A DNA stretch of 64,000 nucleotides from Escherichia coli (GTDB lineage: Bacteria; Pseudomonadota; Gammaproteobacteria; Enterobacterales; Enterobacteriaceae): assembly GCF_044324875.1 (NCBI RefSeq), contig NZ_CP172185.1; one strand, given 5' to 3'. The notes below the pieces were generated by a model, which was given only the letters and a program-made list of their open reading frames with translations, searched no databases and was not told the origin of the DNA. Positions 21,682 through 22,376 of the stretch are shown piece after piece. Within the stretch, counting starts at the first letter, position 1, and every line of letters starts with the position of its first letter. The translations under genes and the position numbers were made by a program.

Positions 21682-22080
21682 TCAAAAACGCATGCGAAAC
21701 GCTTCTGCCATTTTCCCAATTTTATGCATTTGGTTGTTATCTCGAGCCAGTTTATGAGGTTCAGGTTTCAGAATGGCAATGAGCAACCATGCTTGCTCAT
21801 CAAACGCACCCTGACAATATACCAAATGCGCTTCGTCATTCGTTCTGCTGAATTGGCGCAACTGTGGCGGAAATGGATTATTCTAATTTGCCAGATGAAT
21901 ATGAGCAACTCGCTCAAATTTGATTAATGGCCAGGTAAACGAGTCGTCGTAGAGTGCATCGCGACCAAATATATCTGGCAAAACACCGTCACGCTTATAG
22001 GAAATAAAATCCGCCGTTAACGCTTCAAGTTCCTCTGCTGTAAGTTGCAGGCGAATGAGTTTTGTTTTGAATACCCGCAT
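21682..22080 (-). pseudogene. yafO: yafO toxin gene interrupted by an in-frame amber codon
   Basis: Frame spans 132 codons as expected for YafO, but codon 66 is TAG (plus strand cta at 21883-21885); the same frame continues ...NNPFPPQLRQF...FRMRF to a TGA at 21682-21684. Confidence 0.75.
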
Positions 22081-22082
22081 CC

Positions 22083-22376
22083 TTATTCCTTAAAGTCATT
22101 GAAATCATCATCCGTCATATCATTAAGATATTTTTCAGCTCGGCGTGTAATTTCCTCTAATCTTGCAGCACTTGGACGGAAGCGCGCCTTTATAGGCTTT
22201 TTCTCCTCTTGTTCAGTAAGCATGTCCATTAACGCTTCGAATGCGCTGGCACTTAAGAGATATCCTGCGGGGCGATTATTAGAAAGAACCGCAACTGGTT
22301 GATCAATAAAGTATTTAGCTGGGTTTTTACGTAACTCAGTGATATTGACCGATTTTTCCGCAAGAATTCGATGCAT
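22083..22376 (-). CDS. yafN: Type II antitoxin YafN
   Basis: 97-aa ORF MHRILAEKSVNITELRKNPAKYF..., intact, immediately upstream of yafO. Confidence 0.85.
   Translation of the reverse strand: MHRILAEKSVNITELRKNPAKYFIDQPVAVLSNNRPAGYLLSASAFEALMDMLTEQEEKKPIKARFRPSAARLEEITRRAEKYLNDMTDDDFNDFKE

Follow-up and report, generated by a model that had tools for sequence, protein, structure and literature searches.

YafN is the protein antitoxin of yafNO, a type II toxin-antitoxin (TA) module of Escherichia coli, and its toxin partner YafO reportedly acts at the ribosome, a result that is ascribed to Zhang et al. 2009 and Singletary et al. 2009. In the K-12 strain both genes lie within the operon dinB-yafN-yafO-yafP, which is regulated by the SOS response. 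Upon expression K-12 YafO causes growth arrest and ribosome-dependent mRNA cleavage and is neutralised by YafN, while transcription of yafNO starts at two promoters, the SOS-regulated one of dinB and a proximal one under autoregulation by YafN (PMC2814082). By the account of Gutierrez et al. (PMC3105422), E. coli would have lost the module by deletion on at least three separate occasions, namely in groups B1, B2 and D, and decayed modules with a surviving antitoxin are known at other TA loci of the species (PMC7232551). Here we characterized the yafNO locus in a stretch of 64,000 nucleotides of E. coli DNA (contig NZ_CP172185.1 of assembly GCF_044324875.1), which in its full length is referred to as the window. 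We consider it very probable that the locus is a decayed type II TA module, in which yafO is an amber pseudogene inherited across a lineage and YafN is left without its toxin partner.

Translation of the yafO frame revealed one internal stop only, at codon 66 (MRVFK...HIHLAN, stop, NNPFPPQL...FRMRF). At this codon the plus strand reads CTA, which corresponds to TAG on the coding strand, and beyond it the frame is otherwise open to the terminal TGA. In K-12 MG1655 codon 66 is GAG (Glu66), such that the TAG corresponds to a single G>T transversion in the alignment. Besides the stop YafO differs from the K-12 protein by D19E, and over the 695 nt of yafN-yafO 12 positions differ (98.3% identity). 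Owing to the TAG the locus lacks the uninterrupted frame of about 132 codons that is expected for a member of the YafO family. A locus obtained from a metagenome (L017) carries an intact yafO, the DNA of which differs from the yafO of the window at the stop base alone. It would thus be the intact parental allele, while a revertant is the less likely reading of its sequence.

In contrast to the toxin gene, yafN is an uninterrupted frame of 97 codons with its stop 2 nt ahead of the yafO ATG. Its product belongs to the family described by the NCBIfam equivalog NF007300, which it matched with 195.6 bits (cut-off 99) over residues 1-97 of 97. At three loci (L001, L003, L005) YafN carries the label "type I toxin-antitoxin system antitoxin" from the annotation pipeline PGAP, which is a naming quirk of NF007300. 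The arrangement of the whole operon is that of K-12, with dinB followed after 51 nt by yafN, after 2 nt by yafO and after 9 nt by yafP. A preliminary description of the locus, made from the sequence, had listed a yafO of 132 codons with a TAG at codon 66 and the downstream half in frame, a single nonsense mutation, and an intact yafN directly upstream. All of this agrees with the translation, the alignment and the family match. Its assignment to toxin inactivation with antitoxin retention also names the right category, and the comparison with other yafO alleles that it called for gave GAG in K-12, TAG in the enteroaggregative E. coli (EAEC) strain 042 and the single-base difference of L017. 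The features of the locus are collected in Table 1.

Table 1. Features of the dinB-yafP operon in the window, in order of transcription, and predicted structural elements of YafO (residue numbers)
Feature	Position	Strand	Basis and remarks
dinB (DNA polymerase IV), first gene of the dinB-yafN-yafO-yafP operon, intact, 351 aa	22428..23483	-	Open reading frame (ORF); matches dinB of 042, K-12 and M7424
dinB-yafN intergenic region, site of the K-12 proximal yafNO promoter	22377..22427	-	Promoter and YafN autoregulation according to PMC2814082
yafN antitoxin (Phd/YefM type), intact, 97 aa; Q82K (TAG lineage) and A54T (sub-lineage)	22083..22376	-	ORF, NCBIfam match
yafN codon 54, ACT (Thr); GCT (Ala) in 042 and K-12	22215..22217	-	Alignment
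yafN codon 82 (Q82K)	22131-22133	-	Protein comparison
yafO toxin pseudogene, 132 codons plus TGA, broken at codon 66	21682..22080	-	Translation, K-12/042 alignment, RefSeq "internal stop"
Leftover translatable N-terminal fragment of YafO, 65 aa	21886..22080	-	Strand 1, two helices, strand 2, short helix, strand 3 (model)
Amber codon TAG, in frame, ancestral GAG (Glu66)	21883..21885	-	Translation and K-12 alignment
yafO-yafP spacer, 9 nt, ATTTATATT	21673..21681	-	Without Shine-Dalgarno motif; identical to K-12
yafP (GNAT acetyltransferase), intact, 150 aa	21220..21672	-	NF007338, 323.5 bits, cut-off 146
YafO elements before codon 66	Strand 2-5, helices 7-12 and 15-31, strand 38-43, helix 51-55, strand 59-63		AF2 model
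YafO elements after codon 66	Strands 85-90 and 97-104, helices 108-112 and 115-131		AF2 model

The consequence of the stop for the protein was assessed by comparing the 65-aa product with the repaired protein, in which codon 66 is reverted from T to G. Against the YafO equivalog NF007377 of NCBIfam (cut-off 153 bits) the 65-aa product scored 113 bits and the repaired 132-aa protein 245.9 bits. The Pfam domain YafO_toxin (PF13957) covers residues 27-130 of the repaired protein, and the encoded 65-aa product gave no full-length match to the family (PF13957/NF007377). Judged by these profiles, the gene is a yafO by descent yet not a functional member of the YafO family. No solved structure related to YafO by sequence was found. 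A model of the repaired protein, predicted with AlphaFold2 (AF2) from an alignment of 81 diverse homologues, reached a pLDDT of 97.7. The model adopts the fold of the RelE/ParE superfamily, i.e. a small alpha/beta protein with an antiparallel sheet like RelE, HigB and YoeB. Of the residues that are conserved in the alignment, the fragment keeps F25, Y28, K29, F38, G39, D41, H60 and H62 and loses R79, T80, D82, the invariant Y88, H109, A125 and F128, which amounts to a loss of about half of the conserved residues of the family. Since only three of the five predicted strands remain and the C-terminal helix is missing, folding of the fragment into a nuclease appears very unlikely.

To place the allele among its relatives, nucleotide searches were carried out in 5426 complete E. 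coli genomes. With yafN-yafO (695 nt) as the megablast query, 2846 of them (52%) proved to have the locus. Loss of yafNO is thus common in E. coli, with about half of the genomes being without the module. At an identity of at least 99% to the query 140 records were obtained, and a 61-mer centred on the TAG occurred exactly in 140 of the 2841 records that have this stretch, while each of the remaining records carried at least one mismatch. The yafO DNA of EAEC 042 is identical to that of the window, TAG included, and RefSeq labels this gene (EC042_RS30745) a pseudogene with an "internal stop", as it does for the strains EC1 and M7424. The carriers of the TAG came from humans, chickens, ducks, pigs, cattle, wild birds, surface water and hospital wastewater, and one of the strains is labelled as sequence type 69 (ST69). 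In a protein collection built from public assemblies at least 1000 contigs have the exact 65-aa product, and 11,286 blocks of the index list it. Over 6294 nt around the locus the window has a 100% identical counterpart in a contig of the assembly GCA_050232825.1.

A 100% match to the whole 695 nt was seen in none of the complete genomes, while the variant is present in draft assemblies. Over these 695 nt the sole difference from 042 lies in yafN codon 54, and the exact YafN protein of the window was found on 207 contigs and in 0 of the 5426 complete genomes. The repaired 695-mer likewise had no 100% match in the complete genomes, and the exact repaired YafO protein was found on 69 contigs. The search of complete genomes also showed that eight yafNO matches sit on plasmids, and that a few chromosomes keep yafN alone, such as that of MEI003 with 46% of the query covered.

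The TAG allele lies beside a complete Flag-2 cluster in 042 and in the loci L007, L008 and L012, and beside a K-12-like Flag-2 deletion scar in the window, in M7424 and in the loci L006, L009 and L010. As it occurs in both backgrounds, the allele either predates a sizeable diversification or moved across it. The TAG allele is common to, and fixed in, a widespread lineage of E. coli to which EAEC 042 and the ST69 strain belong. The preliminary description had called the mutation recent, a view that does not hold given the identical yafO of 042, the 140 complete genomes with the TAG 61-mer and thousands of draft assemblies. It had further named resequencing of the codon as a possible refutation, which is moot because the TAG is widespread and already annotated in RefSeq. 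In the same vein, the yafO pseudogene is already recorded in the RefSeq annotation and so is not new as annotation. A literature search found no paper describing the yafO amber allele. The genome paper of 042, which places the strain in group D with UMN026, does not mention yafO.

Across the lineage the locus shows the signs of a decayed TA module, i.e. a disabled toxin gene, an intact antitoxin ORF and inheritance of this state. While yafN is intact in nearly all TAG carriers seen, it is interrupted by insertion sequence (IS) elements in two of them. In EC1 (CP058574.1, L003 1720-2488), a urinary isolate from Australia, yafN is split by IS1 with a 9-bp overlap. In OZ039993.1 (L011 1631-2823) it is split by a 1.2-kb IS5-like element, which leaves a stub of 48 aa. 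These two interruptions indicate that strains with the disabled toxin can do without the antitoxin, as an observation on natural isolates and not as the outcome of an engineered deletion. Two independent yafN knock-outs in viable TAG isolates are to be expected if YafO(1-65) is harmless. The insertions show that the antitoxin itself is beginning to decay in the TAG lineage.

Point changes are seen as well. The substitution Q82K of YafN is present in the sampled loci of the TAG lineage and in 0 of 4 sampled alleles with intact yafO (L014, L016, L017, L018), and K-12 has Q82. The sampled TAG-lineage loci also have R131C of YafP in common, while L017 as the nearest allele with intact yafO has neither this change nor YafN Q82K. 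Together with A54T of YafN these substitutions may reflect a relaxed constraint after toxin loss, the changes being too few for testing.

Several other explanations of the TAG have to be weighed against a decayed module. A sequencing or assembly error that hides an intact gene would need to alter one base only with respect to K-12, but it has practically no probability given that 140 complete genomes from independent sequencing carry the same base, as do thousands of assemblies from drafts and metagenomes and the 100%-identical 6.3-kb contig of another assembly. A nonsense mutation private to this strain, i.e. a fresh loss of function, would agree with a single lesion and an unchanged downstream half. 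It is nonetheless highly improbable, since 042, the ST69 strain and many others have the allele in common and since both Flag-2-intact and Flag-2-deleted backgrounds carry it. That a second lesion is missing is explained by how little the lineage has diverged: the TAG-lineage loci are at most 8 single-nucleotide polymorphisms (SNPs) apart over the 2264 nt of dinB-yafP, such that yafO is not expected to have been hit again in its 3' half and the lack of such a hit is uninformative.

Against a complete loss of the toxin one may set that the 3' half bears no other lesion, although none is expected there, that the suppressor search covered the 64 kb of the window, and that the fragment keeps the nearly invariant histidines H60 and H62, the retention of which leaves formal room for residual activity or binding to YafN. 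If the amber codon were leaky, by basal UAG readthrough or by a natural suppressor tRNA, a low amount of full-length YafO would sustain a weak functional TA module, which would explain the intact yafN in nearly all carriers seen and the unblemished 3' half. Amber suppressors have been reported in natural coliforms. We regard such leakiness as very unlikely: IS elements knocked out yafN in two independent carriers, the intact 3' half is uninformative at the low divergence, and about half of E. coli can dispense with the module. The preliminary description had suggested looking for amber suppressor tRNAs in the strain; within the 64-kb window, to which the scan was limited, tRNA-Thr(CGU) is the only tRNA and no suppressor was found. 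In a split toxin the N-terminal 65 aa would form an active nuclease with 59 C-terminal aa that are translated after a restart at a TTG (21859-21861, Leu74). Such a toxin could draw on an in-frame ORF of 59 aa that some gene callers list with a YafO_toxin match (L007, L012). However, the bases preceding the TTG (CCATTTCCGCCACAG) contain no Shine-Dalgarno-like sequence, residues 66-73 would be absent, and carriers tolerate an IS-disrupted yafN, which makes an active split toxin very improbable. There is finally a small chance that the allele is not simply dead, either because UAG readthrough provides a trickle of sub-toxic, YafN-buffered YafO or because YafN and the 65-aa fragment still act jointly on the proximal yafNO promoter and thereby on the supply of YafP. 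By either route the stop would uncouple yafP from yafO translation and alter the SOS-delivered YafP in this lineage. Altogether, a residual function by readthrough, restart or a regulatory role of the fragment seems unlikely.

For the decayed module we propose the following course of events. A G>T transversion in the ancestor of the widespread lineage that includes EAEC 042 and the ST69 strain would have turned the GAG of YafO Glu66 into an amber codon, and the strain of the window would have inherited the allele from this ancestor. Translation would end after 65 residues, such that the final two beta-strands of the RelE/HigB-like fold would be gone together with its C-terminal helices and the fragment would most likely be unable to fold as a nuclease or to cleave mRNA on the ribosome. 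Upon SOS induction the dinB operon would then deliver DNA polymerase IV, YafN and YafP but no active toxin, and YafN would have no toxin to neutralise. Retention of yafN would mainly be due to the short time elapsed and perhaps also to repression at the proximal yafNO promoter, with loss of the gene through IS insertion already under way in some carriers.

Such a remaining task of YafN is in agreement with the conservation of the dinB-yafN intergenic region (22377..22427), which has 2 differences with respect to K-12 and 0 with respect to 042. YafN may therefore still be a repressor of the proximal yafNO promoter, which could slow the loss of its gene. The stop may also affect yafP. In the two-gene operon that lacks yafNO, yafP overlaps dinB by an ATGA, and as in the yafO-yafP spacer of the window no Shine-Dalgarno motif was found there (PMC3105422). 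As yafP directly follows another ORF in the two-gene and the four-gene operon alike, its translation may need ribosomes that finish this ORF. If yafP is translationally coupled in this way, a stop 201 nt early would, as a secondary effect, lower the output of YafP in the TAG lineage. Rho-dependent polarity after the stop was dropped as a candidate since the composition gives no sign of it: the 201 nt downstream show no clear bias of C over G for Rho loading, with C slightly above G in 2 of 8 windows of 78 nt. A search for non-coding RNAs at the locus gave no match to an Rfam family at or above the gathering score, and a scan for promoters and terminators returned nothing over the shuffled background.

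The divergence from K-12 is uneven across 21220-23483, with 4.2% in dinB, 3.5% in yafP, 2.4% in yafN and 1.25% in yafO. Compared to K-12, yafP has 7 non-synonymous and 9 synonymous differences, and dinB 2 and 40. Most of the yafP substitutions occur in relatives with intact yafO too and are hence not tied to the stop codon.

Upstream of dinB, positions 23554-26300 hold the K-12-like Flag-2 scar, in which a truncated lafU (remnant 23554-24471) is fused to a partial lfhA, with an lfhA/flhA-like remnant beyond. Strain 042, with the identical yafO allele, retains the full lateral-flagella cluster. The differences of dinB from 042 all fall within its first approximately 450 nt, and from there through yafNOP and rtcB-prfH only two SNPs are found (one in yafN, one in yafP). 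Together with the Flag-2 contrast this distribution suggests a recombination breakpoint inside dinB. On the other side of the operon an rtcB-like RNA ligase gene (ORF 19890-21041) and prfH (release factor H, within the ORF 19279-19977) lie on the minus strand, intact as in 042 and M7424, while their K-12 counterparts are reduced to ykfJ and prfH pseudogenes. Three Rfam matches to naRNA4, which is derived from REP sequences, were found at 72-76 bits on the minus strand (26114-26292 and 26958-27035), in a region corresponding to the site of the REP-associated transposase gene rayT in the closely related M7424. The tRNA-Thr(CGU) gene thrW (10490-10565, minus strand) is a known integration site, at which no island is inserted in the window: positions 1-10480 are ordinary core with a block of paoABCD, MFS, hydrolase and LysR genes.

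As a biological finding the amber allele adds a point mutation as a further route of YafO loss beside the clean deletion of yafNO, which matters little in a module known to be dispensable. In practical terms the TAG can be used as a lineage marker, and TA inventories that count homologues will over-count functional yafNO in TAG strains. The natural IS knock-outs of yafN provide a ready control for work on YafO toxicity or on the coupling of yafO and yafP outside K-12.

Among the closest of the systems described so far is the locus of EAEC 042, with the same yafO DNA including the TAG, the same operon and the same downstream rtcB-prfH. The two differ in that YafN has Ala54 in 042 and Thr54 here, and in that a complete Flag-2 cluster precedes dinB in 042 while the lfhA'/lafU' scar is found here. 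With yafNO of K-12 the window has locus, gene order and spacing in common as well as a full-length YafN of the same family. It differs from K-12 by TAG instead of GAG at yafO codon 66, by D19E in YafO and by Q82K and A54T in YafN, and it is flanked by an intact rtcB-prfH, of which K-12 has pseudogenes. The CFT073-type dinB-yafP operon, which lacks yafNO owing to a deletion between ATGA repeats, reaches the same outcome of an SOS-induced operon without YafO activity (PMC3105422). There, however, yafNO is cleanly excised and yafP overlaps dinB, whereas here both genes are present and the toxin alone is hit by a point mutation. The decayed modules with a parE-1 pseudogene plus higA in CFT073 and with a lone higA in K-12 and HS resemble the locus in that the toxin was lost or disabled first and the antitoxin ORF persists (PMC7232551); they concern another toxin family, and their lesion is a deletion while here it is one nonsense codon. 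The amber allele is thus the same kind of loss event as the known deletions, brought about by a point mutation, and as such ordinary and already annotated.
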